Source of the DNA: Squalus acanthias | Lineage: Eukaryota | Length of the DNA stretch: 64,000 nucleotides | Assembly (NCBI GenBank): GCA_030390025.1 | Contig: CM059431.1 | Coordinates: 158,846,001-158,910,000, forward strand | Direction: 5' to 3' | Shown: positions 5,899 to 57,249 of the stretch, in pieces | Layout: the number at the start of each line of letters is the position of its first letter | Numbering within the stretch: position 1 is the first letter of the stretch | Translations under genes and position numbers: made by a program | The notes under the pieces: generated by a model | Told to the model about the DNA's origin: nothing | Seen by the model: only the letters and a program-made list of their open reading frames with translations | Database searches by the model: none

Positions 5899-6039
5899 AT
5901 TGTGTCTTGGCGTGTTCCTTGCAATCCTGAAATTTGGATTAATTGCTCCTTGGATAGGATGCAATTTATGTCCGATTACAGAAACAACAGTAACCCGGAT
6001 CCCTGCAGAAATAGCTTAAATGCAAGACGTTTTCACTGA

Positions 6040-6305
6040 ATTATCAGTTGATTGGAGACTCTCTTTCTGCAGATGGTTTTTGCATGTCACTTATGCGGCA
6101 CAAATGTTGTTTGCTGATTATCCACCAAAACTGGCATATTGACCAGATCGTGTTGCATACGGACATGGACTGTTAGTCACCTGCGGAATTGGGAATGGAA
6201 TTGAACACTGCAATCATCAGTGTACAGCCCCAATTCTGACCGTATGACAGAAACAAATGAATTGATGATGCAGCTGACGATATTTGGTTCGAGGATTCTT
6301 CCACG
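6040..6305 (-). mobile_element. Old CR1-clade RT fragment, present in every unit
   Basis: Its reverse complement matches 60290-60500 of the nested LINE by eye (cagctgcatcatcaat...tgatgattgcag...gtccatg..cgtatgcaacaagatctgg). Confidence 0.6.
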
Positions 6306-6627
6306 ATGAACTCATGGTTATAACATGAGATGCTGTTCTCTTATTATTTAACGCATTCAAAACGACAAGTTATGTTTCCTTTGAGACGATATCAGCTGTA
6401 ATCTAAGAGCAGGTAAAAGGGTGGGCCGTGAGAATGCTGTTATCATTCACTCCATGGCTTTCAAGTCCTCGCACCACCACACCTGCGCCGCGAACATAAA
6501 GTCGCCAGAGAATACAACCTTTACAGCAGCAAAGCCATGCCGTTCCAGACCGACTTGAACAATCTCCCACCAACCCGTCTCAAATTTATGAGGCCATTTA
6601 GACAATTCCAACATATATGTAGCATAC

Positions 6628-6797
6628 CTTATGAATTGTTTCAGTAAACACGTTTGCATCTAAGAGCGATTGACTAACAGCTTCCACGAATTCTTCAATT
6701 GACGATTCTAGTCCCTGACGGTAGCAGCCGATAATTCTTCCAAGCTGGATATCCGTGTAGCTCGCCAACATTAGTAACATTTTAGTATCTGAATTTT
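6628..6797 (-). CDS. Exon A1 (first half of CARD-like domain)
   Basis: Acceptor ttttacag|AA, donor AAG|gtatgc; (E)NSDTKMLLMLASYTDIQLGRIIGCYRQGLESSIEEFVEAVSQSLLDANVFTETIHK; 170 nt. Confidence 0.8.
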
Positions 6798-9700
6798 CTG
6801 TAAAAGTGTAAATGAGAACAGGTTACAATACTATGTTTGCTTTGAAGCAATGAATAATTTGAACTAACTTTTAGAGCAGCAGGTTTTCTTTAGAGCCTTT
6901 CAAACACTGAGACGGCCAATGGCGCCTCACAGAGCAGGAATTTAGAGTTAAACTGCCTCCTTTTCGTAGAGTTAATAGAAACAACCTAGTACTTGCAACA
7001 CGTGGAGGTTGTTTAAAGTAAGTAGGAAGTAAAGAGTGGAAGCCCAAGGCAACGGATTCCAATCAGTGGTGCTGACGACTTTGTTGGAGTCCGGAGCAGA
7101 GGAACCAATAATCTGGGGACCACAGCAAAGGGAGAGGATAGACCAGAAATAAAAGAGGGTTTCTGAAGAAAACTGTAAAATTAAGACGCTCGAGACCGTA
7201 AAGGGAATTGTAGATGAGTAGGAGTCTTTCATAAATTGTCTGGGATAGCAAGTGAATGTCGGTCACCGACGAATGGGATTACGGATAAGTGGAGATGAGG
7301 GTGAATTGATGAATTGAAGCAGTCGAGCTCTGGAGATTCTATCTGGCAGTGCCCTTAAGTCGTTCAAGGAATCGAGTCTAAACGTCACAAAAGCGTATCT
7401 AAAACACGAGCAAATATTCATATGTTATCATATATCCAGAAAATTATAATATGATGATTGCGGACGGTAATCTGAGAATCCATTCGAAATTTATTGCTTG
7501 GATTCACCAGATGCTGCTGAGCAATTAGAAATAGTCGTGACTGTCGCTTGTTAGCCTAAAGAGCTCATAAATAATGCACAGATAGTTAAAGAAAGTAACA
7601 GTAAATGCAAGCTCATTCCTTCTTTCTTGTGAAAACTAAACTGCGAAACGGACCGGATAAATTGAAATACTGTGAATGTGAATGTACTCAAAATAAATTT
7701 GATAGATATCAATACAACAATTACAAGAACACAACATTGGGAAAAAGTTATTGATATCAAATTGAAATAATAACTAATTCTCAAATACCAGATCTGAAAC
7801 ATGACAATAGCTGGTAGGAATCATAATTGAATGTAACTGATTCTAAAATGCCTATCGATGGAAGTAGAAAGGCCTGAGAGATACTAAATAAAGAACGGCG
7901 CGGAATCAGCGGTCAGCGCAAAGCAAAGGCATTTGCTGCGGAAACAAAGTAAGCTTGACATAAAGATCTCGCAATCAGGTTTTCCGAAGTGTAATTCAAA
8001 TCAACGGGGCATCATTGGGAATCCCGAGTGCAAGCTGCTGTGAAGTCAACAGGCTGTCTAAGCATCCAACCAAAACGCAGAATTCTCACAGACAGAGAAC
8101 AAGGAAGTGAATAAGCTGTTAAACTTCTAACATTTAAAGAAATGACTGAGCGAACGAAACGAATATTGGGGCTCTAACATGGGGAAAATGCAAAGCAGAA
8201 ATAAGGAGGAAAAGTCTTTTAAAATAATTACATTTTCAGAATAATGTTAATTTTTATTTAAATGAATAAAGTTGTCTCTGCACAAAATAAAAAAATAGAT
8301 GTTCTGGCCTTCACATTTGTTTAGAATTCAATAAGCTGTTGCAATCCAGTTACGCCCTTCCCTTTCAGTCAAACTTTTAGTGGGGAATTCAAGAGCGCAA
8401 TTACTGTGAAAGAGCCGAAGATTACATCTGTTTCCCTGATTTGAGAGATTTCCATGATTACCGGCTCTTGGTGGGCACACCGCTGCCTCTGCAATTTTAT
8501 TGGAATCAAAGGAAGGGAACATAGGACCGAGCGAACAACGGGCAGCAGGTGCAATACCGACCGTTTTTCGGCGAGGACAAAACACAGGCCGTATCGCATC
8601 CATCGCCTATTATATGTTGCGCGCGAATAAACTTGATTTGAGCTGAATATCGGGCGTGTTTGTAACTGTCGGCAAATGTTACCGGCCATTGTGTGTCCCC
8701 GACAATTAGAATTTCATCCTCCTGGACATTAACTTAAAATAAGTTCCTCGACATAAATAATGAACTCTCTTACTCTGAAAGTAAACGAGATCTTTTGCAA
8801 ATAGATTTTGACATCGCCTACATTCTAGATCATGTTTTGTTCCTGTACCTGTCTTCTGTATCTCTGATAATGTGGCTTTCAGTTTGGGTTTTGTATTCTG
8901 CAGTTGAAGAAATATGTTCCACATTGTTCGTTCTCCCCGAGCTCCCTTTTCCAGCGCGGTATCGAAAATGCGTTGGGAAGCATCGTTTCTGCGCTGACTT
9001 TCAGCAAGTGTACTGATTTCCTAAAAAAAATATTGCAATCATATTGAACAAAGTATTTTACAAAATCAGCTAAGAAACGTCGGTTTTCTTTCTCCCTCTC
9101 TTTATGGGAGGAATGAATAGAAAAGCTCACAATCAGGTGACCAATATCTATTTCAACGGGATAAGTTATCAGGAGCGTCTCGAAAGAGCAGATAATTGCA
9201 GACGGCCGGAGAGGATTTGAGAGTTAATTCCAGAGTTTACGACCGAGGCAGCACAACGCACGGCTACCAATGGTGGCGTGAAGAGAATCGGAGTTGTGCA
9301 ATGGTTCAGAATTTGATGAGCACAGAGATCACGGAGGATTGTAGGGCTGGAGGATGTTGCAGAGATAGAGAGGACTAGCTTTGAGTCACCGAGGGAAGCT
9401 GAATTTTCTCAAATGATATGAAAAAATGTTAAGTGCCAAATAAAAGGGGAAAAGTCAGATTTCAGGAATATGCTTCGTGCAAAATGAAGCATTATTTGTT
9501 CTTAGTAACAGCAATGTTCTGGAAAGCGCAGAACCTGCTTTTAGAAACTCAAACTGCTCAGATTGTAAAACAATGCGGGTGAAATTGGAATCGGCGAGTC
9601 ACATGACAGGTGCTGATAGCGAATGGTCGGCTCGTGTTACACCCGTCCGTATTTCTTTATCATTGATTGCAATTAGACTTCCGTTCATTTCAAGTGTCAT

Positions 9701-12700
9701 TCATCGAAACAGCAGCACAAGCTTATCAGTAAATCCTTCATCTTCTATATGAACCATTTGCTTTGAATACGTGAATAGTCCTGTCTTATGAGTAACTATT
9801 TTATTTGAAGTGTTTATGAAATGTGATCATTGTCCCGAATTCTGTCATCTGCCAATCACCAAATTCTTAAACTGTCAACGTTTTACCTTCTGCTCGTTAA
9901 CCTCTATGTTTCTTTGATTTGATTTATATAATCAACACCCTACATTCAATTTTTAAATCTACTTTTCATTTCCTTTTCTATCCACATCCAAGTAATTCTT
10001 GTATGTGCTCCACCCGTTTTATTATCGTGTAATTCCTATATATCGTATCGCAATCATTTCCTTCTTGGTACCTTCGTATCGCTTCCCGACGGAATTAACT
10101 GATCCATTCCGTCCCAATATATCTGGGCTAGTGTGTTCTTCATTTGTTGAAATTGGTTATCCTGTACATATATATTGCTTTGATATACTGTTCTTCTGAA
10201 TTCTAATGATATCATTGCTTCTGAGATATCAGTTATCCGTTTGCAGAAATGGATCCAATACTCATTCCTTCCCTGTTGTTCTGGAAACGTACCCATCTAT
10301 CTCATGTCCTGGATACGTGGCAGATAGCACACTCCCTCTTCCACCTGTACATCACTTCTGTACTTCAGATATTTAAAGTCATCCATATCTCTGATAGCCT
10401 CGCTAAAATGTCTCCATTTTTTCAATATATCGTTTCCTCAATCCGTGACCCACCACTTGTGCATGATAATGAACTCCTCATAGTTAATGCCCAGTTTTTT
10501 CGATCGCAGGAATCCTGGGTGCGCAGGTCTGCAATCTGGAAAAATCTACGCCCTTACATTCGGGATCCCGGGACGCACACGATTCCGATCCTGGGCCTCT
10601 CCAATCTCCACTTGCGCATGGCCCTATTATCCCAGAGGATCAGGCAGATTACACGGTGCCTGGGATCATGTGGGCCATGGGGAGCCAATCAAAGTAGGAA
10701 AAATGCCTTCATACACTTGACAGGAACACCTGTCAAATATATGAATGGAGATCACCCCAAAAACATATTGGCGAAGAAATTCCTTTCGCAGGCCGCCCGC
10801 GGGCGGAGAACTGCAATCTGGAAAAATCTGTGACTGAATTGGAGGCCTCCCGGGAGGCGCAGAGTTCCGTTGCTTGGTCTCTCCAAACTTCCGGTGCGCA
10901 GGGCCCACTTATCCCAGAGGCGCTTGCGGGTCGCAGCGTCCCTGGGATCACGCAGGGAGCCAATCAGAGAAGGGAATCTCCCTTCATACACTTAACAGGA
11001 AGACCTGTCCAATATATGAATGGAATTCACCCCGAAAACAAAGTAAAAGCAAGCCTTAGCCCTGCTTTTAGCAGGCATACAATTTCTAATAGTTTCCTGC
11101 AGGCGGGGGTTCTCCAGAAAGCCGAACTATCCGTCCGCAGAGGACATTCTCCAGGCTTGGCGTCCAATCTGTCAAGAGCATTCTTGATAGATCGGAAATT
11201 ACGGATTTCAGCGCATGCGCTTGGCATGCCTGAAACCGGCATTTCCGATGTCCCTGCGGTTGTGTGCACAGCGCGTACACACCGGTAAGGATCGGAATAT
11301 CCGGCCCATTAACGCCAAGCTCCCAGCCGTCCGCTTACATTAACCATGTCTTCATATCATAACTTCCTAGAGCATCATCAGACAATCGCTACCTTCAACT
11401 AATCAGCTTTATTCACCATGCTTTATTAATATGTAATATATAACTTCAGGAAATATTCGAAAAGAGATCAGATAGACATCAAGGATGCGATTCGGAATTT
11501 TATTTTAAATAGGACATGATGGCTGTCTTGACAGGAGATGCCGGTAATGTTGATGTCCTTGAGCATTGGGCAGAAGAATGAACGTGAAGGCTTAAAGTTG
11601 CGTAACCCATGGACTGGATGAATTTTGCGAGTGCTTGGTGAGACGTAGAAAAATGCAGATTTTTTGAGGTTGTTAATTATAAGTAATAACTGTGGCAGGG
11701 AAGTTGGTAGATAGGCAGGTAGAATCCGCCATGCAGTGAAGTTGGAAGGAGAAAATAAATGGAAGCAACGACTTGAATATGTTCAGTAGAAAGTTCTAGA
11801 AATTGGTGCCACGGGCAGTGACTCACAGAAATCGTCTCGTTTAATTAAAATGCTCGTCTGCTTTGCTAAAGAACGGACAGAATTTCTCGGCCGTGAGCGA
11901 CAGCTTATTTTAAATGTGTCAGTTAATTTCATTTCCTGAGATTAGATATATGTGGCTATTAGATGTTCTATCCAGCTCCAGGATATCCATTGGGACTTTG
12001 CTGAGGACGCGTGTTGGTTGTGCTGCTAGTGGTATCTTATTCAAATATTCATTACAATATTTGGCCCTTAATTTCCTTTAGGAGGCTGCCTGCGTGCGGT
12101 TAACTCCTGCCGGGAATAAATCTACGCCCTTACCTGAGTGCTCCCAAGGAGGAGCCATTTCCGATCCTGGGCCTGTCCACAGTAGAAATGCGGAGGGCCC
12201 ACCTGATCCCAGGGACACTTGCGACGCTCGTGAGCCCCTGAGATAGGTGGACAGGCGAGAGAATAGAAGGGAATCTCCCTTCATACCTTTGACAGATAGA
12301 GCTGTCAAAGGTATGAATAAAGATCACCCCAAAAGCAAATCAAATCAATAAATACATTTTTCAAAAGCATCGCGTTTTTAAAATGAGTAACATTTAAATT
12401 AATTTAAATATTTTAAACAAAAATTTAATGTTTTGAAAAAATTTATCATAGATTTTTACGGATCTAAAATTAAACTTACCTTATTTAGAAGTACTTAAAA
12501 ATTATAAATGAGCGAAAGAATATGTATTTTTTTACTTTTTTAAACTCTTGTGCTCTGAAAAGCAGGCGTTACGCCTGCTTTTACCAGGAGTACGATTTTT
12601 AAGTGTTTTCAAGACCGGATGTCCTGCAGCAAGCGGAAATCTCCACCCGCAGAGGCCCTTCTCTGGGGCAAGCGTCCGATCTGTGAAGTTGATTCTTGAC

Positions 12701-15700
12701 AGATCGGAAATGCCGGTTTTAGCGCATGCGCTTCGCATGCCTGAAACCGGCATTACCGATGTCCCTGCGGGTGTGTACACAGCGCGTACTCACACGTAGG
12801 CATCGGAAAATACAAGCCATTGTGTCTCGGCATGTTCCTTGCAATCCTGAAATTTGAATTAATTGCTCCTTGGATAGGATGCCATTTATATCCGATTACA
12901 GAAACAACAGTAACCCGAATCCCTGCAGAAATACGGCCAAGGTAAATAGCTTAACTGCAAGACGTTTTCCAGTGAATTGTCAGTTGATTAGAGAGTCTCT
13001 TTCTGCAGATGGTTTTTGCATGTCACTTATGCGGCACAAATGTTACTTGCTAATTATCCACCAAAACTGGCATGTGGACCAGATCTTGTTGCATACGGGC
13101 ATGGACTGTTTAGTTCCCTTACGAATTCGGAATGGAATTGAACACTGCAATCATCAGTGTACAGCCCAAATTCTGACCATATGACAGAAAAACATGAATT
13201 GATGATGCAGCTGACGATATTTTGGTCGAGGATTCTTCCACGATGAACTCATGGTTATAACATGAGATGCTGCTCTCTTGTTATTTAACGCATTAAAAAC
13301 CTCAAGTTCTGTTTCCTTTGAGACGATATTAGCTGTAATCTAAGAGCACGTAAAAGGGTGGGCCGTGAGAAGGCTGTTATCATTCACCCCATGGCTTTCA
13401 AGTCCTCGCACCACCACACCTACGATGCGAACATAAAGTCGACAGAGAATGCAACCTTTAAACCATCAAAGCCATGCCGTTCCAGACAGACTTGAACAAT
13501 CTCCCACCAACTCGTCTCAAATTTAGGAGGCCATTTAGACAATACAAACATATATGTAGCATACCTTATGAATTGTTTCAGTAAACACGTTTGCATCTAA
13601 GAGCGATTGACTAACAGCTTCCACGAATTCTTCAATTGACGATTCTAGTCTCTGACGGTAGCAGCCGATAATTCTTCCAAGATGGATATCGGTGTAGATC
13701 GCCAACATTAGTAACATTTTAGTCTCTGAATTTTCTGTAAAAGTGTAAATGAGAACAGGTTACAATACTATGTTTGCTTTGAAGCAATGAATAATTTGAA
13801 CTAACTTTTAGAGCAGCAGCTTTTCTTTAGAGCCTTTCAAACAGTGAGACGGCCAATGGCGCCTCACAGAGCAGGAATTTAGAGTTAAAGCTGCCTCTTT
13901 TTCGTAGAGTTAAGAGAAACGACCTAGATCTTGCAACATGTGGAGGTTGTTTAAAGTAAGTAGGAAGTAAAGAGTGGAAGCCCAAGGCAACTGATTACAG
14001 ACAGTGGTGCTCACGACTTTGTTGGAGTCCGGAGAAGAGGAACCAATAATCTGGGGACCACAGCAAAGGGAGAGGATGGACCAGAAATAAAAGAGGGTTT
14101 CTGAAGAAGACTGTAAATTTAAGACGCTCGAGACCGTAAAGGGAACTGTAGATGAGTAGGAGTCTTTCACAAATTGTCTGGGACACGAAGTGAATGTAGG
14201 TCACCGACGAATGGGATTATGTATAAGTGGAAATGAGGGTGAATTGATGAATTGAAGCAGTCGAGCTCTGGAGATTCTATCTGGCAGTGCCCAAAAGTCG
14301 TTTAAGGAATCGAGTCTAAACCTCACAAAAGCGTATCTAAATCACGAGAAAATATTCATATGTTATCATATATCCAGAAAATTTAAATATGATGGTTGCG
14401 GACGGTGATCTGAGAATCCATTCGAAATGTATTGCTTGGAATCACCAGATGCTGCTGAGCAATTAGAAATAGTCGTGACTGTCGCTTGTTAGCCTAAAGA
14501 GCTAATAAATAATGCACAGATAGTTAAAGAAAGTAACAGTAAATGCAAGCTCATTCCTTCTTTCTTGGGAAAACTAAACTGCGATACGGACCGGAGAAAT
14601 TGAAATACTGTGAATCTAAATGTACTCAAAATAAATTTGATAGATATCAATACAACAATTACAAGAACACACCATTGGGATAATGTTATTGATATCAAAT
14701 TGAAATAATAATTAAATCTCAAATACCACATCTGAAACATGACAATAGCTGGTAGGAATCATAATTGAATGTACCTGATTCTAAAATGCCTATCGATGGA
14801 AGTAGAAAGACCTGAGAGATACTAAATAAAGAACGGCCCGGTATTAGCGGTCAGCGCGAAGCAAAGGCATTTGCTGCGGCCACAAAGTAAGCTTGACACA
14901 AAGATCTCGCAATCAGGTTTTCCGAAGTGTAATTCAAATCAACGGAGCATCATTGGGAATCCCGAGTGCAAGCTGCTGTGAAGTCAACAGGCTGTCTAAG
15001 CATCCAACCAAAACGCAGAATTCTCACAGACAGCGAACAAGGAAGTGAATAAGCTGTTAAACTTCTAACATTTAAAAAAATGATTCAGCGAACGAAACAA
15101 ATATTGGGGCTCTAACATGGGGAAAATGCAAAGCAGAAATAAGGAGGAAAAGTCTTTTAAAATAATTACATTTTCAGAATAATGTTAATTTTTATTAAAT
15201 GAATAAAGTTGTCTCAGCACAAAATTTAAATTAGATTCTCTGGCCATCAAATGTGTTTAGAATTCAATACGCTGTTGCAATCCAGTTACACCCTCCCTTT
15301 CAGTCAAACTATTAGTGGGGAATTCAAGAGCGCAATTACGGTGAAAGAGCCGAAGATTACATCAGTTTCCCTGATTTGAGAGATTTCCCTGATTACCGGG
15401 TCTGGGTGGGCACAGCGCAGCCTCTGCAATTTTATTGGAGTCAAAGGATGGGAACATGGGACCGAGCGAACAAATGCCAGCAGATGCAATACCGACCGTT
15501 TTTCGGCGAGGACAGAACACAGGCCGTGTCGCATCCATCGCCTATTATATGTTGCGCGCGAATAAACTTGACTTGAGCTGAATATCGGGCGTGTGCGTAA
15601 CTGTCGGCAAATGTTACCGGCCATTGTGTGTCCCCGACAATTAGAATTTCATCCTCCTGGACATTAACTTAAAATAAGTTCCAAGACATAAATAATGAAC

Positions 15701-18700
15701 TCTCTTACTCTGAAAGTAAACGAGATCTTTTGCAATTAGATTTTGAAACCGCATACCTTCTAGATCATGTTTTGTCCCTGTATCTCTGTTCTGTATCTCT
15801 GACAATGTCGCTTTCAGGTTGGGTTTTGTATTCTGCAGTTGAAGAAATATGTTCCACATTGTTCTTTCTCCCCGAGCTCCCTTTTCCAGCACGGTATCGA
15901 AAATGCGTTGGGAAGCATCGTTTCTGCGCGAACTTTCAGCAAGTGTACTGATTTCCTGAAAACATATTGCCATCATATTGAACAAAGTATTTTACAAAAT
16001 CAGCTAAGAAACGTCGGTTTTGTTTCACCCTCTCTTTACGGGAGGAATGAATAGAAAAGCTCACAATCAGGTGACCAAAATCTATGTCAACGAGATAAGT
16101 TATAAGGAGCGTCACTAAAGATCAGGGAATGGCAGATTGCCTGAGAGGATTAGAAAGTTAATTCCAGAGTTTAGAACCGTAGCAGCACACCGCACTGCTA
16201 CCAATGGAGGCGTGAAGAGAATCGGGGTTGCGCAATGGTTCAGAATTTGATGAGCACCGAGATCACGGAGGATTGTAGGGCTGGAGGATGTTGCAGAGAT
16301 AGAGAGGACCAGCGTTGAGTCACCGATGTAAGCTGAATTTTCTCAACTGATATGGAAAAATGTTAAGTGCCAAATAAAAGGGTAAAAGTCAGATTTCAGG
16401 AATATGGTTCGTGCAAAATGAAGCACTATTTGTTGTTAGTAACAGCAATGTTCTGGAAAGCTCACAAAGTGCTTTCAGAAACTCAAACTGCACAGATTGC
16501 AAAACAATGCGGTTGAAATTGGAATCGGCCAGTCGCATAACAGGTGCTGATAGCGAATGGTCGGCTCGTGTTACACGCGTCCGTATTTCTTTACCATTGA
16601 TTGCAATAAGACTTCCGTTCATTTCAAGTAACATTCATCGAAACAGCAGCTCAAGCTTATCAGTCAGTCCTTCATCTTCTATATGAACCATTTGCTTTGA
16701 ATACCTGAATAGTCCTGTCTTATGAGTAACTATATTATTTGAAGTGACTATGAAATGTGATCATTGACCCGAAAATTGTCTCATGCCAATCACCAAATTC
16801 TTAAACTGTCAACGTTTTACCTTCTGCTCGTTAACCTCTATGTTTCTTTGATTTGATTTATATAATCAACCCCCTACATTCAAGTTGTAAATCTACTTTC
16901 CATTTCCTTTTCTATGCACATCCAAATAATTCTTGTATGTGCTCCACTCCTTTTATTATCGTGTAATTCCTTTATATCGTATCGCAATCATTTCCGACTT
17001 GGTACCTTCGTATTGCTTCCCGACGGAATTATCTGATCCATTCCGTCCCAATATATCTGGGCTAGTGTGTTCTTGATTTGTGGAAATTGGTTATCCTGTA
17101 CATATATATTGCGTTGATTTACTGTTCTTCTGAATTCTAATGATATCATTGCTTCTTCGATATCCGTTATCCGTTTGCAGAAATGGATCCAATACTCATT
17201 CCTTCCCTGTTGTTCTGGAAACGTACCCATCTATCTCACGTCCTGGATACGTGGCAGATAGCACACTCCCTCTTCCACCCGTACATCACTTCGATACTTT
17301 AGATATTTAAAGTCATCCATATCTCTGATACCATCGCTAAAATGTCTCCATTTTTTCAATATATCGCTTCCTCAATACGTGACCCACCACTTGTGCATGA
17401 TAATGAGCTCCTCATAGTTAATGGCCAGTTTTTTCGATCGCAGGAATCCCGGGTGCGCAGGTCTGCAATCTGGAAAAATCTACGCCCTTACCTTCGGGAT
17501 CCAGGTACGCACAGGATTCCGATCCTGGGCCTCTCCAATCTCCACTTGCGCACGGCCGTATTATCCCAGAGGCACAGGCAGATTACAGGGTTCATGGGAT
17601 CATGTGGGCTATGGGGATCCAATCAAAGTAGGGAAACTGCATTCATACACTTGACAGGAACACCTGTCAAATATATGAATGGAGATCACCCCAAAAACAT
17701 ATTGGCCCGGAAAATCCTTTCGCAGGCCGCCCCCGGGCGGAGGACTGCGATCTGGAAAAATCTGTGCCTGCACCGGAGGGCTCCCGGGAGGCGCAGAGTT
17801 CCGTTGCTTGGTCTCTCCAAACTTCCGGTGCGCAGGGCCCACGTATCCCAGAGGCGCAGGCGGTTCGCAGCGTCCCTGGGATCACGTAGGGAGCCAATCA
17901 GAGAAGGGAATCTCCCTTCATACACTTGACAGTAAGACCTGTCCAATATATGAATGGAATTCACCCGAACACATAGTAAAAGCTAGCCTTAGCTCTGCTT
18001 ATAGCAGGCATACAATTTCTAATGGTTTTCTGCAGGCGGGGGTTCTCCAGAAAGCGGAACGATCCGTCCGCAGAGGACCTTCTCCAGGCTTGGCGTCCAA
18101 TCTGTCAAGAGCATTCTTGACAGATCGGAAATTACGGATTTCAGCGCATGCGCTTGGCATGCCTGAAACCGGCATTTCCGATGTCCCTACGGTTGTGTAC
18201 ACAGCGCGTACACACCCGTAAGGATCGGAAAATACCGGCCCATTAACGCCAAGCTCCCAGACGTGCGCTTACATTAACCATGTCTTCATATCATAACTTC
18301 CTAGAGCATCATCAGACAAACTCTACCTTCAACCAATCAGCTTTATTCACCATCCTTTATTAATATATTTGTTATATAACTTCAGTAAATAATCGAAAAG
18401 AGATCAGATAGACATCAAGGATGTACTCGGAATTTTATTTTAAATAAGACATGATGGCTGTCATGACAGGAGATGCCGGTAATGGTGATGTCCCTGAGCA
18501 TTGGGCAGAAGAATGAACGTGAAGGCTTAAAGTTGCGTAACCCATGGACTGGATGAATTTTGCGAGTGCTTGGTGAGACGTAGAATAATGCAGATATTTT
18601 GAGGTTGTTAATTATAAGTAATAACTGTGGCAGGGAAGTTGGTAGATAGGCAGGTAGAATCAGCCATGCAGTGAAGTTGGAAGGAGAAAAGAAATGGAAG

Positions 18701-45700: not shown

Positions 45701-48700
45701 TACGATTTTTAAGTGTTTTCAAGAGCGGATGTCCTGCAGCAAGCGGAAATCTCCACCCGCAGAGGCCCTTCTCTAGGGCAAGCGTCCGATCTGTCAAGAT
45801 GATTCTTGACAGATCGGAAATGCCGGTTTTCACCGCATGCGCTTCGCATGCCTGAAACCGGCATTACCGATGTCCCTACGGGTGTGTACACAGCGCGTAC
45901 TCACACGTAGGCATCGGAAAATACGAGCCATTGGCCCAGAAATTAAACATCGATGGTTCCCGCGGGAGTAAGTATTCCCCGCGAATTCGCACTCCGCGCC
46001 GACCTTTTTGTTTCGGGCCCACACGAACTTGAGTTTCAGGGCCTCTCCCTGTTGCAAGCGTGCAGTGCTTGCGTGTCCCTGATGCGCAATTAGTTCGTGC
46101 GAGCTCTGGGATCACGTGATTCAGTTAGAGCCAATGGCAGCACAACATCTTTCATTCATAGTTTTGACAGCAAGGGCTGTTAAAGCTATGAATACTACAA
46201 GACAGCAAAAGAACAGCTAAACCTCAATTAAATTTTAAAAAAGCCATCACATTAATAAAATAACTACATTAAAAAAAATTTTGAAAAAATTTAAAACCTT
46301 TTTAAAAGTTATAAAAATAAACTTACCTTTCTTTAAAGACTCGAAAAAAGATAAACCTGTTGAATTTTTTTTTGAATAACACTTAATTAACTACTTACCT
46401 TGTTAAAAGGTGGTCCTGCGGCTGCTTCCTTTATGTGTAAAATCTTCACCACTTACCTGCGCGTTCAAACCTGAAAGAAAAACTGAATGCACTGTTCACT
46501 TAGGCACCGCCACCTTTGCAAAACACCAAGTGCCAGATTCCCGCGCAAGCGCAGTGCATACAGGGAACCGGCAATTCGGGACCGAATACGCGAGAGTACA
46601 CAGTGCGTACTCTCGCGTATTCGGTCTAATTTTCGGGCCATTGTGTCTTGGCGTGTTCCTTGCAATACTGAAATTTGGATTAATTGCTCCTTGGATAGGA
46701 TGCCATTTATGTCCGATTACAGAAACAACAGTAACCCGAATCCCTGCAGAAATACGGCCAAGGTAAATAGCTTAACTGCAAGACGTTTTCCAGTGAATTA
46801 TCAGTTAATTAGAGAGTCTCTTTCTGCAGATGGTTTCTGCCTGGCACTTATGCGGCACAAATGATGCTTGCTAATTATCCACCAAAACTGGCATGTTGAC
46901 CAGATCTTGTTGCATACGGGCATGGACTGTTTAGTTACCTGAGGAATTGGGAATGGAATTGAACACTGCAATCATCAGCATAAAGCACAAATTCTGACCG
47001 AAGGACAGAAACATTTTTATTGATGAAGCAGCTGACGGTATTTGGGTCGAGGATTCTTCCACGATGAACTCATGGTTATAACATGAGATGCTGTTCTCTT
47101 GTTATTTAACACATTAAAATTGACAAGTTCTGTTTCCTTTGAGACGATATTAGCTGTAATCTAAGAGCACGTGAAAGGGTAGGCCGTGAGAAGGTTGTTA
47201 TCATTCACCCCATGGCTATCAAGTCCTCGCACCACCACACCTACCCCGCGAACATAAAGTCGCCAGAGAATACAACCGTTAAACCCGCAAAGCCATGACG
47301 TTCCAGACCGATTTGAACAATCTCCCACCAAACCGTCTGAAATTTAGGAGGCCATTTAGACAATTCCAACATCTATGTAGCATACCTTATGAATTGTTTC
47401 AGTAAACACGTTTGCATCTAAGAGCGATTGACTAACAGCTTCCAAGAATTCTTCAATTGACGATTCTAGTGTCTGACGGTAGCAGCCGATAATTCTTCCA
47501 AGCTGGATATCCGTGTAGCTCGCCAACATTAGTAACATTTTAGTATCTGAATTTTCTGTAAAAGTGTAAATGAGAACAGGTTACAATACTATGTTTGCTT
47601 TGAAGCAATGAATAATTTGAACTAACTTTTAGAGCAGCAGCTTTTCTTTAGAGCCTTTCAAACACTGAGACGGCCAATGGCGCCTCAGAGAGCAGGAATT
47701 TAGAGTTAAAGCTGCCTCCTTTTCGTAGAGTTAAGAGCAACGACCTAGATCTTGCAACATGTGGATGTTGTTTAAATTAAGTAGCAAGTAAAGAGTGGAA
47801 GCCCAAGGCAACGGATTCCAGACAGTGGTGCTAACGACTTTGTTGGAGTCCGGAGCAGAGGAACCAATAATCTGGGGAAAACAGCAAAGGGAGAGGATGG
47901 ACCAGAAATAAAAGAGGGTTTCTGAAGAAGACTGCAAAATTAAGACGCTCGAGACCGTAAAGGGAATTGTAGATGAGTAGGAGTCTTTCACAAATTGTCC
48001 GGGATAGCAAGTCAATATAGGTCACCGACGACAGGGATTATGGATAAGTGGAAATGAGGGTGAATTGATGAATTGAAACAGTCGAGCTCTAGGGATTCTA
48101 CCTGGCAGTGCCCAAAAGTCGTTTAAGGAATCGAGTCTAAACCTCACACAAGCGTATCTAAATCACGAGCAAATATTCATAAGTTATCATATATCCAGAA
48201 AATTATAAGATGATGGTTGCGGACGGTGATCTGAGAATCCATTCGAAATTTATTGCTTGAAATCACCAGATGCTGCTGAGCAATTAGAAATTGTCGTGAC
48301 TGTCGCTTGTTAGCCTAAAGAGCTAATAAATAATGCACTGTTAGTTAAAGAAAGTAATAGTAAATGCAAGCTCATTCCTTCTTTCTTGGGAAAACTAAAC
48401 TGCGATACGGACCGGAGAAATTGAAATACTGTGAATCTAAATGTACTCAAAATAAATTTGATAGATATCAATAAAACAATTACAAGAACACACCATTGGG
48501 AAAAAGTTTTTGATATCAAATTGAAATAATAACTAAATCTCAAATACCACATCTGAAACATGACAATAGCTGGTAGGAATCATAATTGATTGTACCGGAT
48601 TCTAAAATGCCTATCGATGGAAGTAGAAAGTCCTTAGAGATACTAAATAAAGAACGGCCCGGTATTAGCGGTCAGCGCCAAGCAAAGGCATTTGCTGCGG

Positions 48701-51700
48701 CCACAAAGTATGCTTGACACAAAGATCTCGCAATCAGGTTTTCAAAAGTTTAATTCAAATCAACGAAGCATCATTGGGAATCCCGAGTGCAAGTTGCTGT
48801 GAAGTCACCAGGCTGTCTAAGCATCCAACCAAAACGCAGAATTCTCACAGACAGCGAACAAGGAAGTGAATAAGCTGTTAAACTTCTAACATTTAAAAAA
48901 ATGATTGAGCGAACGAAACACATATTGGGGCTCTAACATGAGGAAAATGCAAAGCAGAAATTAGGAGGAAAAATCTTTTAAAATAATTACATTTTCAGGA
49001 TAATGTTAATTTTTATTGAAATGAATAAAGTTGTCTCTGCACAAAATTAAAATTAGATTTTCTGCCCATTACATTTGTTTAGAATTCAATACGCTGTTGC
49101 AATCCAGTTATACCCTTCCCTTTCAGTCAAACTTTTAGTGGGGAATTCAAGAGCGCAATTATTGTGAAAGAGCCGAAGATTACATCAGTTTCCCTGATTT
49201 GAGAGATTTCCCTGATTACCGGCTCTGGGTGGGCACAGCGCAGCCTCTGCAATTTTATTGGAGTCAAAGCAAGGGAACATAGGACCGAGCGAACAACGGG
49301 CAGCAGATGCAATGCCGGCCGTTTTTCGGCGAGGACAAAACACAGGCCGTATCGCATCCATCGCCTATTATATGTTGCGCGCGAATAAACTTGAATTATG
49401 CTGAATATCGGGCGTGTGTGTAACTGTCGGCAAATGTCAACCGGCCATTGTTTGTCCCCGACAATTAGAATTTCATCCTCCTGGACATTAACTTAAAATA
49501 AGTTCCAAGACATAAATAATGAACTCTCTTAATCTGAAAGTAAATGAGATCTTTTGCAATTAGATTTTGACATCGCCTACCTTCTAGATCATGTTTTGTC
49601 CCTGTACCTGTCTTCTGTATCTCTGACAATGTCGCTTTCAGTTTGGGTTTTGTATTCTGCAGTTGAAGAAATATGTTCCACATTGTTCTTTCTCCCCGAG
49701 CCCCCTTTTCCAGCGCGGTATCGAAAATGCGTTGGGACGCATCGTTTCTGCGCTGACTTTCAGCAAGTGTACTGATTTCCTAAAAAAATATTGCAATCAT
49801 ATTGAACAAAGTATTTTACAAAATCAGCTAAGAAACGTCGGTTTTCTTTCTCCCTCTCTTTATGGGAGGAATGAATAGAAAAGCTCACAATCAGGTGACT
49901 AAAATCTATGTCAAGGAGATAAGTTATAAGGAGCGTCTCTAAAGAGCAGATAATGGCAGACGGCCGGAGAGGATTACAGAGTTAATTCCAGAGTTTCGGA
50001 CCGAGGCAGCACAACGCACGGCTGCCAATGGTGGCGTGAAGAGAATCGGGATTGCGCAATGGTTCAGAATTTGATGAGCACAGAGATCACGGAGGATTGT
50101 AGAGCTGGAGGATGTTGCAGAGATAGAGAGGACTAGCGTTGAGTCACCGAGGGAAGCTGAATTTTCTCAATTGATATGAAAAAATGTTAAGTGCCAAATA
50201 AAAGGGGAAAAGTCAGATTTCAAGAATATGGTTCGTGCAAAATGAAGCATTACTTGTTGTTAATAACAGCAATGTTCTGGAAAGCTCACAACGTGCTTTT
50301 AGAAACTCAAACTGCACAGATTGTAAAACAATGCGGGTGAAATTGGAATCGGCCAGTCGCATGACAGGTGCTGATAGCGAATGGTCGGCTCGTGTTACAC
50401 GCGTCCGTATTTCTTTCCCATTGATTGCAATTCGACTTCCGTTCATTTCAAGTATCATTCATCTAAACATTAGTACAAGCATATCAGTCAATCCTTCATC
50501 TTCTATATTAACCATTTTCTTTTGAATACCTGAATAGTCCTGTCTTGTGAGTAACTATTTTATTTGAAGTGTTTATGAAATGTGATCATTGTCCCGAATT
50601 CTCTCACCTGCCAATCACTAAATTCTTAAACTGTCAACGTTTTACCTTCTGCTCGTTAACCTCTATGTTTCTTTGATTTGATTCATATAATCAACCCCCT
50701 ACATTCAATTTGTAAATCTACTTTTCATTTCCTTTTCTATGCACATCCAAGTAATTCTTGTATGTGCTCCACCCGTTTTATTATCGTGTAATTCCTATAT
50801 ATCGTATCGCAATCATTTCCTTCTGGTACCTTCGTATTGCTTCCCGACGGAATTATCTGATCCATTCCGTCCCAATATATCTGGGCTAGTGTGTTCTTGA
50901 TTTGTTGAAATTGGTTATCCTGTCCATATATATTGCTTTGATTTACTGTTCTTCTGAATTCTAATGATATCATTGCTTCTTAGATATCCGTTATCCGTTT
51001 GCAGAAATTGGATCCAATACTCATTCCTTCCCTGTTGTTCTGGAAACGTACCCATCTATCTCAGGTCTTGGATACGTGGCAGACATCACACTCCCTCTTC
51101 CACCAATACATCACTTCTATACTTTAGATATTTAAAGTCACCCATATCTCTGATACCCTCGCTAAAATGATTCCATTTTTTCAATATATCGCTTCCTCAA
51201 TTCGTGACCCACAACTTGTGCATGTTAATTGAACTCCTCATAGTTAATGGCCAGTTTTTTCGATCGCAGTAATCCCGGGAAGAAGGTCTGCAATCTGGAA
51301 AAATCTACGCCCTTACCTTAGGGATCCCGGGACGAACACGATTCCGATCCTGGGCCTCTCCAATCTCCACTTGCGCAGGGCCCTATTATCCCAGAGGCAC
51401 AGGCAGATTACAGGGTGCCTGGGATCATGTGGGCCATGGGGAGTCAAGCAAAGTAGGAAAACTGCATTCATACACTTGACAGGAAGACCTGTCAAATATA
51501 TGAATGGGGATCACCCCAAAAACATAGTGGGCCAGAAATTCCTTTCGCAGGCCGCCCGCGGGCGGAGGACTGCGATCTGGAAAAATCTGTGCCTGGACCG
51601 GAGCGCTCCCGCGAGGCGCAGAGTTCCGTTGTTTGGTCTCTCCAAACTTCCGGTGCGCAGGGCCCAAATATACAAGAGGCGCAGGCAGTTCGCAGCGTCC

Positions 51701-54700
51701 CTGGCATCACGTAGCGAGCCAATGAGGGAAAGGAATCTTCCTTCATACATTTGACAGGAAGACCTGTCAAATGTATGAATGGAATTCAGCCCCAAAAGAT
51801 AGTAAAAGCAAGCCTTAGCCCTGCTTTTAGCAGGCATACGATTTCTAAGGGTTTTCTGCAGGCGGGGGTTCTCCAGAAAGCGGAACTATACGTCCGCAGA
51901 GGACCTTCTCCAGGCTCGGCGTCCAATCTGTCAAGAGCATTCTTGACAGATCGGAAATTACGGATTTCAGGGCATGCGCTTGTCATGCCTGAAACCGGCA
52001 TTTCTGATGTCCCTACGGTTGTGTACACAGCGCGTACACATCCGTAAGTATCGGAATAGCCGGCCCATTAACGCCAAGCTCCCAGCCGTGCGCTTACATT
52101 AACCACGTAGGTGTTAATGTCTTCATATCATAACTTCCTGGAGCATCATCAGACAATCGCTACCTTCAACTAATCAGCTTTATTCACCATGCTTTATTAA
52201 TATATGTGGTACATAACTTCAGGAAATATTCGAAAAGAGATCAGATAGACATCATGGATAAAACTCGGAATTTTATTTTAAATAGGACATGATGGCTGTC
52301 ATGACAGGAGATGCCGGTAATGTTGATGTCCCTGAGCATTGTGCAGAAGAATGAACGTGAAGGCTTAAAGTTGAATAACCCATGGACCGGATGAATTTTG
52401 CGAGTGCTTGGTGAGACGTAGAAAAATGCAGATTTTTTGAGGTTGTATATTATAAGTAATAACTGTGGCAAGGAAGTTGGTAAATAGGCAGGTAGAATCC
52501 GCCATGCAGTGAAGTTGGAAGGAGAAAAGAAATGGAAGCAACGACTTGGATATGTTCAGTCGAAAGTTGTAGAAATTGGTGCCACCGGCAGTGACTCACA
52601 CGAATCGTCTCCTTTAATTAAAATGCACTTCTCCTTTGCAAAAGAACCGACAGAATTTCTCGGCCGTGAGCGACAGCTTATTTTAAATATGCTTTAATTT
52701 ACTGCCTCCCAAAGATACACAAAGCCAACACACCCGGACGTCCTATCGTATTAGGCAACGGAACCCTGTGTGAGAACCTCTCTGGGTACGTCGAGGGCAT
52801 CCTGAAACCCATCGTACAGGGAACCCCCAGCTTCTGTCGCGACACTACAGACTTCTTGCAGAAACTCAGCACCCATGGACCAGTTGATCCAGGAACACTC
52901 CTCGTCACAATGGACGTATCGGCACTCTACACCAATATCCCCCACAATGACGGCATCGCTGCGACAGCCTCAGTACTCAACACCAACAACAGCCAATCTC
53001 CGGACGCCATCCTACAACTCATCCGCTTCATCCTTGACCACAATGTCTTCACCTTCGACAACCATTTTTTTACCCAAACACACGGAACAGCCATGGGGAC
53101 CAAATTCGCACCCCAATATGCCAACATCTTCATGCACAAGTTCGAGCAAGACTTCTTCGCTGCACAGGACCTCCAACCAACGCTGTACACCAGATACATC
53201 GACGACATCTTCTTCCTTTGGACCCACGGCGAAGGATCACTGAAAGGACTACACGATAGCATCAACGGGTTCCATCCCACCATCAAACTCACCATGGACT
53301 ACTCCTCAGAATCGGTTTCATTCTTGGACACACGAATCTCCATCAAAGACGGACGCCTCAGCACTTCACTCTACCGCAAGCCCACGGACAACCTCAGAAT
53401 GCTCCACTTCTCCAGCTTCCACCCTAACCACGTTAAAGAAGCCATCCCCTATGGATAAGCCCTGCGAATACACAGGATCTGCTCAGACGAGGAGGAACGC
53501 GATGGACACCTACGGACACTGAAAGACGCCCTCGTAGGAACGGGATATGACGCTCGACTCGTCGATCGACAGTTCCGACGGGCCACAGCGAAAAACCGCA
53601 TAGACCTCCTCAGAAGACGAACACGGGACACAACCAACAGAGTACCCTACGTCGTCCAGTACTTCCCCGGAGCGGAAAAACTACGCCGTGTTCTTCGCAG
53701 CCTTCAACATGTCATCGATGACGACGAACACCTTGCTAAGGCCATCCCCACGCCTCCACTACTCGCCTTCAAGCAGCCGCCTAACCTCAAAAGTACCATC
53801 GTTCGCAGCAGATTACCCATCTTTCAGGCGAACAGCAACCAAGACACCACACAACCCTGCCACGGCAACCTCTGCAAGACATGCCAAATCATGGACACAG
53901 ATACCATCATCACATGTGAGGGCACTACCCACCAGGTACACGGTACATACTCATGTGACTCGGCCAACGTTGTCTACCTGATACGTTGCAGTAAAGGATG
54001 CTCCAGAGCATGGTACATCGGCGAGACCATGCAGACACTGAGACAACGTATGAACGGACACTGCACAACAATCGCTAGGCAGGAGGGTTGCCTCCCAGTC
54101 GGGGAACACTTCAGCAGCCAGGGGCATTCAGCCTCGGATATGCGGGTAAGCGTTCTCCAAGGCGGCCTTCGAGATACACGACAGCGCAAAATCATAGAGC
54201 AGAAACTGATAGCCAAGTTCCGCACTCATGAGGATGGCCTCAATCGCGATATCGGGTTCATGTCACGATACAGAACGTGACTTGACATCATGGTCGGTCT
54301 TCCCAGGTGTTTTTTTTTTAAAAAGGCTAACACAAGAACCTACACAGATTGACAGGATATGCAGCCAGCAGGTGGTTTGACACGTTGGACCCCCTGGGAC
54401 ACATCTCATTGTCTTGGCTATGCTCTTTGATGTAGGGAAAGATTTGAATATATTTTGTCTGTGTTTAAATTGTGAATTCTGGGAGATTCTCTCACTGCTA
54501 AACTTACCTGACGAAGGAGCGAACTGCTCCGAAAGCTTGTAAAATTAAATAAATCTGTTGGACTATAACCTGGTGTTGTGCGACTTCTTATTTTAAATAT
54601 GTCAGTTAATTTATTTTCCTGAGATTAGCTATATGTGACTATTAGATGTTCTATCTAGCTCCAGGATATCCATTGGGTATTTGCTGAGTACGCGTGATGC

Positions 54701-56411
54701 TTGTGCTGCTAGAGGTATCTTATTCAAATATGCATTACAATATTTGGCCCGTAATTTCCGTTAGGAGGCTTTCTGCGTCCGCATGCCTCCTATCGGGAAG
54801 AAATCTACGCCCTTACCTGAGGGCTCCCGAGGAGGAGCCATTTCCAATCCTGCGCCTGTCCACAGTAGAAATGCGCAGGGCCCACCTGATCCCAGGGACG
54901 CTTGCGAAGCTCGTGAGCCCCTGAGATAGGTGGACAGGCTAGAGAATAGAAGGGAATCTCCCTTCATACCTTTGACAGATAGACCTGTCAAAGGTATGAA
55001 TGGAGATCACCCCAAAAACAAATCAGAATAATAAATATATTTTTCAAAAGCATCGCATTTTTAAAATGAGTAACATTAATATTAATTTAAATTTTTTAAA
55101 CAAAAATTTAATGTTTTTAAAAAAATAATTAAAGATTTTTACGGAGCTAAAATTAAACTTACCTTATTTAGAAGGACTTTAAAATTATAAGTGAGTGAAA
55201 AAATATATATTTTTTACTTTTTTAAACTGCTGTGCTGGGAAAAGCCGGCCTTACGCGTGCTTTTACCAGGAGTACGATTTTTAAGTGTTTTCAAGAGCGG
55301 ATGCCCTGCAGCGGAAATCACCACCCGCAGAGGCCCTTCTCTGGGGCAAGCGTCCGATCTGCCAAAATGATTCTTGACAGAACGGAAATGCCGATTGTCA
55401 GCGCATGCGCTTCGCATGCCTGAAACCGTATTACCGATGTCCCTACGGTTATGTACACCGAGCGTACTCACACGTTGGCATCGGAAAATACGAGCCATTG
55501 TGTCTTGGCGTGTTCCTTGCAATCCTGAAATTTGGATTAATTGCTCCTTGGATAGGATGCCATTTATGTCCGATTACAGAAACAACAGTAACCCGAATCC
55601 CTGCAGAAATACGGCCAAGGTAAATAGCTTAATTGCAAGACGTTTTCCAGTGAATTATCAGTTGATTAGAGAGTCTCTTTCTGCAGATGGTTTCTGCCTG
55701 TCACTTATGCGGCAGAAATGTTACTTGCTAATTATCCACCAAAACTGGCATGTTGACCAGATCTTGTTGCAAAGGGCATGGACTGTTTAGTTACCTGAGG
55801 AATTGGGAATGGAATTGAACACTGCAATCATCAGCGCACAGCCCAAATTCTGACCGTATGACAGAAAAAAAATAATTGATGAAGCAGCTGACGATATTTG
55901 TGTCGAGGATTCTTCCACCATGAACTCTTAGTTATACCATGAGATGCTGTTCTCTTCTTATTTAATGCATTAAAAACGACAACTTGTGTGACCTTTGAGA
56001 CGACATTAGCTGTAACCTAAGAGCACGCAAAAGGGTGGGTCGTGAGAAGGCTGCTACCATCCATCCCATGGCTATCAAGTCCTCGCGCCATCACACCTCT
56101 GCGGGGAATATACAGTCGCCAGAGAATACAACCGTTACAACAGCAAAGACATGCCGTTCCAGACCGACTTGAATAATCTACCACCAACCCGACGAAATTT
56201 TAGGAGAAAATTTAGACAATTCCAACATATATGTAGCATACCTCATGAATTGTTTCAGTAAACACGTTTGCATCTAAGAGCGACTGACTAACAGCTTCAA
56301 CGAATTCTTCAATTGCCGGTTCTAGTCTCTGACGGTAGCAGCCGATAATTCTTCCAAGCTGGATATCCGTGTAGCTCGCCAACATCAGTAACATTTTAGT
56401 ATCTGAATTTT
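6628..56411 (-). CDS. Predicted spliced gene segment encoding tandem CARD-like death-fold repeats (NLR-like N-terminus), 15 exons A8-B7-A7...B1-A1, incomplete
   Basis: Alternating phase-compatible exons with AG acceptors and GT donors, no stops or indels. A+B has a CARD-like pattern (YRQRLESSIEEFVEAVSQSLLDANVFT / EISTLAE..RRNDASQRIFDT.LEKG...MWNIFLQL...KPKLKATLSEIQ), similar by recall to shark NLR N-termini. No expression data. Confidence 0.75.
8849..9020 (-). CDS. Exon B1 (second half of CARD-like domain)
   Basis: Acceptor ttttttttag|GAA, donor CAG|gtacag; EISTLAESQRRNDASQRIFDTALEKGARGERTMWNIFLQLQNTKPKLKATLSEIQKT; 172 nt. Confidence 0.8.
9150..9380 (-). mobile_element. Old L2-like 3' fragment, repeated next to each B exon
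   Basis: 'aggagcgtct...ttccagagtt...gcacggctaccaatggtgg...gagatcacggaggattgtagggctggagg' resembles the antisense L2 3' region also seen at 62570-62770. Confidence 0.55.
13565..13734 (-). CDS. Exon A2
   Basis: Same splice sites as A1; NSETKMLLMLAIYTDIHLGRIIGCYRQRLESSIEEF...TIHK, open. Confidence 0.8.
15757..15955 (-). CDS. Exon B2 (long form)
   Basis: Acceptor ttttcag|GAA. Proximal donor after 15784 reads AT; in-frame donor AAG|gtatgc 27 nt further on. Confidence 0.7.
20502..20671 (-). CDS. Exon A3
   Basis: Canonical sites; LASYTDIQLGIIIGCYRQRLE..., open. Confidence 0.8.
22698..22869 (-). CDS. Exon B3
   Basis: Acceptor tttttttag|GAA, donor CAG|gtacag; open. Confidence 0.8.
27404..27573 (-). 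CDS. Exon A4
   Basis: Canonical sites; LAIYTDIQLGRIIGCYRQRLESSIEEFVEVV..., open. Confidence 0.8.
29598..29796 (-). CDS. Exon B4 (long form)
   Basis: Acceptor intact. Proximal donor after 29625 reads AT; in-frame donor AAG|gtaggc after 29598. Confidence 0.7.
34341..34510 (-). CDS. Exon A5
   Basis: Canonical sites; same protein sequence as A2. Confidence 0.8.
36534..36732 (-). CDS. Exon B5 (long form)
   Basis: As B2: proximal donor AT, in-frame donor AAG|gtatgc after 36534. Confidence 0.7.
41281..41450 (-). CDS. Exon A6
   Basis: Canonical sites; same protein sequence as A3. Confidence 0.8.
43476..43674 (-). CDS. Exon B6 (long form)
   Basis: Acceptor intact. Proximal donor after 43503 reads AT; in-frame donor AAG|gtaggc after 43476. 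LEMG variant. Confidence 0.7.
45933..46639. mobile_element. MITE M3, unit-specific insertion (PIF/Harbinger-like)
   Basis: TIRs GGCCCAGAAATTA ... TAATTTTCGGGCC. Exact 3-bp TSD ATT (45930-45932 and 46640-46642). The other units show the empty site. Confidence 0.9.
47386..47555 (-). CDS. Exon A7
   Basis: Canonical sites; ...YRQTLESSIEEFLEAV..., open. Confidence 0.8.
49608..49779 (-). CDS. Exon B7
   Basis: Acceptor intact. Both the proximal donor CAG|gtacag and the +27 donor AAG|gtaggc (after 49581) are intact. Confidence 0.78.
52692..54586 (+). mobile_element. Penelope-like retroelement (RT + GIY-YIG endonuclease), 5'-truncated
   Basis: YCLPKIHKANTPGRPIV, LVTMDVSALYTNI, GTAMGT, YIDD, then VVYLIRC...YIGET..TLRQRMNGH in the same frame, with an in-frame stop at 53456-53458. 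Flanked by a 15-bp duplication CTTATTTTAAATATG (52677-52691, 54587-54601). Confidence 0.95.
54504..54542 (+). ncRNA. Minimal type I hammerhead ribozyme in the Penelope 3' region
   Basis: TTAC-CTGACGA-A-GGAGC(gaact)GCTCC-GAAA-GCTT-GTAA: both core boxes, a 5-bp stem II, a palindromic minimal stem III and a 4-bp stem I (TTAC/GTAA). Confidence 0.75.
56242..56411 (-). CDS. Exon A8 (5'-most copy in the window)
   Basis: Acceptor cttgtacag|AA, donor GAG|gtatgc; ...YRQRLEPAIEEFVEAV...TIHE, open. Confidence 0.78.
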
Positions 56412-57249
56412 CTGTACAAGTGTAAATGAGAACAGGTTAAAATACAATATTTGCTTTGAAGCAATGAATAATTTGAACTAACTTTTAGAGCAGCAGCTTT
56501 TCTTTAGAGCCTTTCAAACAGTGAGATGGCCAATGGCGCCTCACAGAGCAGGAATTTAGAGTTAAACTGCCTCTTTTTCGTAGAGTTAAGAGAAACGACC
56601 TAGATGTTGCAACATGTATAGGTTGTTTAAATTAAGTAGGAAGTAAAGAGTGCAGGCCCATAGCAACGGATTCCAGCCAGTGGTGCTAACGACTTTGTTG
56701 GAGTCCGGAGCAGAGGAACCAAAAGTCTGGGTTCCACAGCAAAGGGAGAGGATGGACCAGAAATACAAGAGGGTTTCTGAAGAAGACTGTAGAGCTAAGA
56801 AGCTCGAGACCGCAAAAGGAATTGTAGATGAGTCGGAGTCTTTCACAAATTGTCAGGGATAACAAGTGAATGTCGATCACTGACGAAGGGGATTACGGAT
56901 AAGTGGAAATCTGTTTGAACTTATGAATTGAAGCAGTCGAGCTCTGGAGTTTCTATCTGGCAGTGCAGAAATGTCGTTTAAGGAATCGAGTCTTAACCTC
57001 ACAAAAGCGTGGTTAAATCACGAGCAAATATTCATATGTTATCATATATCCAGAAAATTAACATTAACATATGATGGTTGCGGTTGGTGATCTGAGAATC
57101 CAGGTCGAGATTTATTGCTTGGAATCACCAGATGCTGCTGAGCAATTAGAAATAGTTGTAACTCTCGATTGATTGCCTAAAGAGCTAATAAATAATGCAC
57201 AGATATTTAAAGAAAGTAACAGTAAATGCAAACTCATTCCTTCCTTCTC

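Follow-up and report, generated by a model that had tools for sequence, protein, structure and literature searches.

A tandem array of nine two-exon CARD-like modules in Squalus acanthias and its predicted CARD-only product

CARD signalling proceeds through nucleated polymerisation, with one or two CARDs in each of the known sensors. NOD2, RIG-I, and MDA5 have two CARDs each, which are old, differ from one another, and do not stem from repeated two-exon modules. The CARD-only proteins ICEBERG, CARD16, CARD17, and CARD18 derive from caspase-1 in primates and consist of a single CARD. Here, we analysed a stretch of 64,000 nucleotides from Squalus acanthias (C7:158,846,001-158,910,000 of the 3.7-Gb assembly; hereafter the window), which together with its left flank holds a minus-strand tandem array of two-exon modules. 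In contrast to the proteins above, this locus has nine linked modules, each predicted to encode a CARD of NLR derivation.

The closest described relatives come from other sharks. The Scyliorhinus torazame 'uncharacterized protein' P0097 (1,405 aa) and the catshark fragment P0007 (GCB66031.1, 483 aa) belong to the same domain family; the window module is 39-55% identical to their repeats, the head-to-tail order and the module length are the same, and the Pfam CARD match is significant in P0097. In P0097, NACHT, NOD2_WH, and NLRC4_HD2 come after five CARDs, whereas the locus described here has nine modules and no NACHT nearby. P0008 of Mustelus asterias (XP_078087540.1) contains three tandem copies, 48-49% identical to the window module, with a NACHT exon directly after them, and displays a B-to-NACHT junction. 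Unlike the array in the window, its three copies are near-identical, and it is a full NLR with LRRs and an extra N-terminal hydrophobic part. Duplicated N-terminal exon repeats are also found in another massively expanded fish NLR family, the NLR-B30.2 genes of zebrafish, for which the relevant passages of PMC4852459 describe heavy duplication of these repeats and exon shuffling among members. According to the same passages, the zebrafish repeat differs in being a peptide motif of ~30 residues confined to those NLRs, without a death fold, and the death-fold domains there are single (PMC4852459). In a paper on the whale shark (PMC8455134), the passages on CARDs and tandem arrangements deal with NOD1 and RLRs. 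Literature searches for a natural protein in which three or more CARDs are linked, and for N-terminal arrays in shark NLRs, returned none and yielded only the two-CARD sensors and the zebrafish peptide repeats. Shark proteins with two to five such CARDs, including the five-CARD catshark NLR, are already present in public annotation; what is new here is the larger number of modules, the lack of a NACHT, and a clear genomic mechanism.

Structure of the array and its spliced frame

Self-comparison by BLAST revealed minus-strand tandem units of ~6.93 kb at window positions 3083..57248, continuing left to about -12777 (negative coordinates are positions left of the first letter of the window). With 60 kb fetched on each side, the whole array comprises ~10 units between about -12777 and 57248. 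Tandem Repeats Finder is blind to periods of this length. Within the window, which contains no N letters, units at an offset of one or two are 93-94% identical. Identity is highest between units three apart (20,771 bases; 96.3% versus 93.9% for units one or two apart, window 3083-44468), and part of the array therefore arose via duplication of a three-unit block.

Two conserved open segments, exons A and B, alternate on the minus strand. Exon A, 170 nt long, lies between AG and GT; it begins in phase 1 and ends in phase 0. Exon B, likewise preceded by AG, begins in phase 0 and ends in phase 1; its length is 172 nt where a unit offers a GT at that point and otherwise 199 nt. Eight A and seven B exons lie inside the window, the latter measuring 172 nt (n = 3) or 199 nt (n = 4). 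All 15 are open, lack indels, and keep both the AG acceptor and the GT donor, and they sum to 8x170 + 3x172 + 4x199 = 2,672 nt. An earlier note on this DNA had described this exon pattern with its phases, 15 open and indel-free copies with AG acceptors, and a spliced length of ~2670 nt; these observations were reproduced. It had also advised looking to the left of the window for another B exon and for NACHT and LRR exons. The first part of this advice was borne out, as the left flank contributes B, A, and B, so that the whole array begins with A and ends with B and comprises nine A-B modules. Down to -80000, the flank yielded no NACHT or LRR exons.

All 18 exons are open, and 36 of 36 splice sites are kept. 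In module order on the minus strand, exons A and B are located at 56242..56411 and 49608..49779 in module 1 (B in the 172-nt form, with the 199-nt donor present too), 47386..47555 and 43476..43674 in module 2 (B of 199 nt), 41281..41450 and 36534..36732 in module 3 (199 nt), 34341..34510 and 29598..29796 in module 4 (199 nt), 27404..27573 and 22698..22869 in module 5 (172 nt), 20502..20671 and 15757..15955 in module 6 (199 nt), and 13565..13734 and 8849..9020 in module 7 (172 nt). Exon A of module 8 (6628..6797) is the last one inside the window; the limits 6628 and 56411 given in the earlier note coincide with its final base and with the initial base of the A exon of module 1. Its B exon (-3698..-3896) and both exons of module 9 (A, -5920..-6089; B, -10634..-10832) lie to the left. 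The nine modules encode eight distinct domain sequences, modules 3 and 6 being identical in this respect.

When all nine modules were joined by script, the product was 3,240 nt long, with 1,079 codons and no stop. The B-to-A junction reads G|AA (Glu). In modules 5 and 7, splicing from the distal 199-nt donor would turn this junction into a T|AA stop; the proximal GT donor is present in only three units (modules 1, 5, and 7), which include both units at risk. The first Met is codon 6, within exon A of module 1, and serial splicing would thus give a 1,079-codon frame that starts at this ATG. In the relatives P0026 and P0004, the start codon is situated at the very beginning of an A-type exon, which is consistent with a translation start inside the first A exon of the array. 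Beyond the last B exon, the frame reads through 38 more codons before a stop.

The exon B frame also stays open past its donor elsewhere in the array, for ~47 codons more (window 8709-9020 and the equivalent place in other units). This read-through open frame is 104 aa long in ~37 of the listed copies, and some database proteins align into the tail. A single-CARD isoform produced by intron retention is possible.

Identity of the module domain

A profile was built from ten B halves, taken from the window and from distant paralogues with the same exon split. Searching 1.84 billion proteins with it returned 88 proteins. All 18 looked-up matches with a species label are chondrichthyan, the groups represented being sharks, rays, sawfish, and chimaera; their database titles read 'NACHT, LRR and PYD domains-containing protein 3-like', 'NLR family CARD domain-containing protein 3-like', or 'uncharacterized'. 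NACHT was present in 14 of 20 scanned relatives, and the matched domain lay N-terminal to it in 13 of these 14, the exception being P0006. As judged from these sequences and as far as seen, the domain family is restricted to cartilaginous fishes and forms the N-terminal effector of expanded NACHT-LRR 'NLRP3-like' receptors, which agrees with the assignment made in the earlier note. One of the candidates was rejected. P0005 (3,802 aa) gave 22 matched stretches at E 8.5e-43 against the B-half profile and had been considered as a 22-copy protein, but the stretches proved to be an unrelated low-complexity repeat; the case is a caution for profile searches with short helical queries.

The two exons together make up one domain. 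A conceptual A+B domain, with exon A taken from module 7, aligned with P0007 at 53% identity over 111 aa (E 6e-33), and the alignment crosses the exon junction. Its identity to P0023, P0008, and P0026 was 54%, 49%, and 40%, respectively, the last over 88 residues. Each A+B pair is predicted to encode one CARD of ~90 residues, a six-helix death fold, plus a linker of ~20 residues.

Two of these relatives served to test the fold. The AlphaFold model of P0026, computed with 50 relatives, has a pLDDT of 86.9 and shows a six-helix bundle with one additional helix in front. The first helix of the bundle in this relative is broken (helices 18-27 and 29-35, followed by helix 37-49). A first helix split into H1a and H1b is a hallmark of CARDs. 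In relatives, the six-helix antiparallel bundle fits solved CARDs more closely than PYD, DD, or DED structures. CARDs also head the list in a Foldseek comparison with the PDB; the best match is the ARC CARD (E 0.13), and ICEBERG is among the fold matches. In Pfam, the gathering cut-off of CARD (PF00619) is 23.9 bits. P0097 (40.4 bits, on a repeat 55% identical to the window module) and P0003 (30.3 bits) score above it, and P0004 (23.4 bits) and P0023 (22.9 bits) score just under it. Sequence comparison and the structure model together identify the module domain as a divergent CARD rather than a PYD, in line with the death fold proposed earlier, with the evidence coming from relatives and not from the spliced peptide of the window. 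A word-based protein search with exon B as query against longer proteins gave no match.

Product, constraint and splicing

We favour, as the likelier though far from settled account, a tandemly amplified set of nine CARD modules that gives a serially spliced nine-CARD chain. Eight NLR protein queries, and then all collected proteins, found no match to NACHT or LRR from -80000 to +124000 (204 kb, reaching 67 kb either side of the array), and no other protein-like exons were found in these 204 kb. A search for the subfamily NACHT detected no minus-strand exon between the array and the NACHT of the next gene at C7:158707424; the 52 kb at C7:158,714,000-158,766,000 were covered by genome-wide NACHT searches only. 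That next gene is separate and has its own A exon. The array shares with bona fide NLRs a homologous N-terminal domain and has neither a NACHT nor an LRR of its own within the 204 kb. Of the two options in the earlier note, an NLR or an adaptor, the NLR thus gained no support, and the interpretation given there is only partly supported. Since no NACHT or LRR exon follows the array, its most likely product is predicted from the sequence to be a CARD-only chain of nine CARDs ending in the 38-codon read-through tail of the last B exon.

Other arrays of the chromosome differ in this respect. Its last 6 Mb contain ~30 groups of A exons. Three plus-strand groups, with 12, 17, and 8 A exons (C7:153.72-153.80, 154.57-154.71, and 155.45-155.52 Mb), precede intact subfamily NACHT exons by 5.5, 8.6, and 12 kb. 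The open frames of these NACHT exons span 614 aa, and the groups are candidate NLRs with many more CARDs than the annotated relatives found. A group of five A exons lies upstream of a NACHT exon with one stop, and for hundreds of kb around further groups of 5-9 A exons, like the one in the window, there is no NACHT. A comparison gene has a NACHT exon with a phase 1 acceptor (G|AG, Glu) 7.6 kb beyond its A and B exons. Because the A and NACHT acceptors are both phase 1, one B donor fits either.

The main rival is that the array is a young remnant not yet decayed: segmental duplication produced it as a by-product, the NACHT-LRR part was lost, and no functional protein is made, with exons intact only as the copies are young and gene-converted. 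We regard this as unlikely, but it has real weight. The lack of NACHT and LRR over the 204 kb is what it predicts, the units differ by just 4-7%, and no transcript is assigned to this array. Openness alone is unremarkable, since this repeat has many frames that are open in every unit (in all six full units, eight regions of the gene strand and four of the opposite strand fall within open stretches of 56 codons or more). NACHT-less sister arrays hold stop-bearing A exons, one at 159.2 Mb and two at 158.33 Mb, which means that arrays of this sort do decay. The pN/pS of the exons is 0.60, which indicates mild constraint only, and gene conversion could lower exon divergence too. Against a remnant, the exons accumulated 0.114 substitution events per site versus 0.270 in the 400-nt flanking introns, that is, 0.42 of the intron rate. 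No stop-creating change was observed in the 18 exons, whereas ~4.8 were expected at the intron rate (P about 0.008). Gapped columns numbered 0 of 342 in exons and 59 of 1,628 in flanking introns; one of the places where the earlier note had listed intron indels, 44468, is a repeat breakpoint. The preservation of every splice site and a contig 97% identical to an exon A of the window (5 differences in 174 letters) likewise speak against it. Ranked by invariance among 170-column windows, exon A falls in the top 0.4% and exon B in the top 14%. Genome-wide, 147 of 150 matches to B and 125 of 136 matches to A are stop-free, reaching down to ~40% identity. The exons of the array are under constraint.

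For serial splicing, contigs from four public runs of two studies were placed on window 6560-13800; regions without contig cover were not taken as evidence of silence. The end of A was joined to the start of B in contigs of all four runs. The reverse joint, from the end of B to the beginning of A, uses the 199-nt donor in X1; in X2, X4, and X5, 18 other letters stand between the two exons. Such joints fall at the borders of exon B of module 7 and at exon A of module 8. Individual contigs of 331-390 letters read B-A-B. Contig depth was zero over unique intron stretches and reached hundreds to thousands over repeat-like stretches. Of the 88 genomic matches to P0007 that were scored (from 728 candidates), not one is an intron-less copy with A and B in continuous DNA, so that an intron-less DNA source for the joined contigs is not in sight. 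At the protein level, a conceptual A-B-A-B peptide aligned with residues 1-226 of P0007 in a single ungapped stretch (51%, E 3e-65). Annotated relatives contain two tandem copies (P0003, P0004, and P0023), three (P0008), three and a half (P0007), or five (P0097). Modules are thus spliced serially in this family. As the contigs are only 87-97% identical to the window, the serial splicing that the earlier note had predicted is proven for the family and not for this array; with differences of 3-13%, the contigs may derive from sister arrays.

The same contigs leave some room for an alternative use of the modules, in which transcripts carry one or a few CARDs, perhaps joined to a NACHT more than 67 kb away, and no nine-CARD protein is made. 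They reach B-A-B at most, so that two modules are the maximum demonstrated; annotated relatives have one to five copies, and any B donor is in phase with any A or NACHT acceptor. We consider this improbable. The subfamily NACHT search lists no minus-strand exon between the array and C7:158707424, whose gene has its own A exon, the NACHT is 5-12 kb from the last module in other arrays, and the frame is kept only if skipping is strictly pairwise.

It is very improbable that the copy number is an assembly artefact, namely an inflated shorter array or stacked haplotypes. Long tandem repeats are difficult to assemble, and the flank upstream has a 99% match ahead of the 159.24-Mb array; on the other hand, the units are 4-7% apart with private indels and rearrangements, the nine modules have eight distinct domain sequences, and the window is free of N. 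Least probable of all is that the domain is a pyrin or another death fold, as the NCBI name of the relatives with its PYD and the scarcity of Pfam CARD matches might suggest, given the scores of P0097 and P0003, the broken first helix of P0026, and the fact that no PYD, Death, or DED appears among the 25 families listed for 50 relatives.

Besides the mild constraint, the decay of sister arrays, and the distance of the contigs from the window, several further points weigh against the nine-CARD chain. The six candidate runs are classed as RNA by software guess only, with shares of at most 0.23. Fold and Pfam match rest on relatives 40-55% identical to the window module. Pfam CARD reaches E<=0.01 in only 3 of 50 relatives, no Pfam family matched any of 12 single exon-half peptides from the window and paralogues at E<=10, and the Foldseek comparison with the PDB gave no match at E<=0.001. 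A PDB sequence search with the A-half and B-half profiles returned no CARD; its chance rows, such as dynein light chain (E 0.12) and M protein (E 0.41), include no death fold.

Flanking elements and implications

The 3.75-kb flank upstream of the array (57249..61000, minus strand) recurs ahead of three sister arrays, with 99% identity at one (C7:159237077-159240829) and 94-95% at two. It contains LINE-like open reading frames (ORFs) only, and no 5' coding exon was recognised in it. The first 132 residues of P0008, which have two hydrophobic, membrane-span-like stretches ahead of the CARDs, found no match in the region of the array. On the plus strand, a LINE fragment with endonuclease and reverse transcriptase ORFs (99..2776; Pfam Exo_endo_phos_2 35.6 bits, RVT_1 105.9 bits) sits in the long intron that separates the two exons of module 8 and extends this intron to ~10.3 kb. 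Irregular units occur at window 44468-46587 and 52700-54577. The segment 44469-45933 is a partial additional copy of a unit segment, and the irregular region also includes a stretch without unit homology, whereby the A-to-B intron of module 1 measures 6.5 kb. Each unit has two copies, 78-82% alike, of an element of ~265 bases (for example, window 4122-4387 and 5638-5901), which is probably a SINE-like repeat. Genome-wide, the Pfam NACHT query gave 481 candidates and a NACHT query from a shark 581, many of which lie on small, unplaced contigs. The genome has undergone a very large NLR expansion.

Under the nine-CARD reading that we favour, the modules, entering and leaving in phase 1, would allow unequal crossing-over of the 6.93-kb units to add CARDs with the frame intact, and the array would have grown partly in blocks of three units. 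CARDs covalently joined in a row would act on CARD filament signalling. The tandem CARDs of RIG-I form a tetramer that serves as a helical seed for MAVS, and CARD-only proteins of the ICEBERG type act on caspase-1 as cap or decoy. By analogy, the chain might be a ready-made helical seed, or a multivalent cap or decoy; both these roles and the expression of the array are inferred. A broader and more doubtful proposition, which we put forward tentatively, is that sharks have turned the effector CARD of an NLR into a genome-encoded polymer of variable length, with 8-17 linked CARDs, amplified by unequal crossing-over, before a NACHT and with NACHT-less chains in addition, such as the one of nine CARDs here. 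Such a chain could by itself form one or more turns of the CARD helix; it would then act as a single-molecule filament nucleus or a multivalent cap and set the threshold of inflammasome-like signalling, with copy number as a fast-evolving tuning knob.

The domain is mostly missed by Pfam, and database names call it PYD or 'uncharacterized', so genes of this kind are likely mis-annotated or truncated in shark genomes. If made, a nine-CARD protein would offer a natural system for testing the control of filament nucleation by valency and tethering, and the same applies to the sister genes with 8-17 CARDs and a NACHT. The array also illustrates how domain number can come to vary by simple genomic means within a vertebrate immune family, with symmetric phase-1 modules carried inside a tandem repeat.

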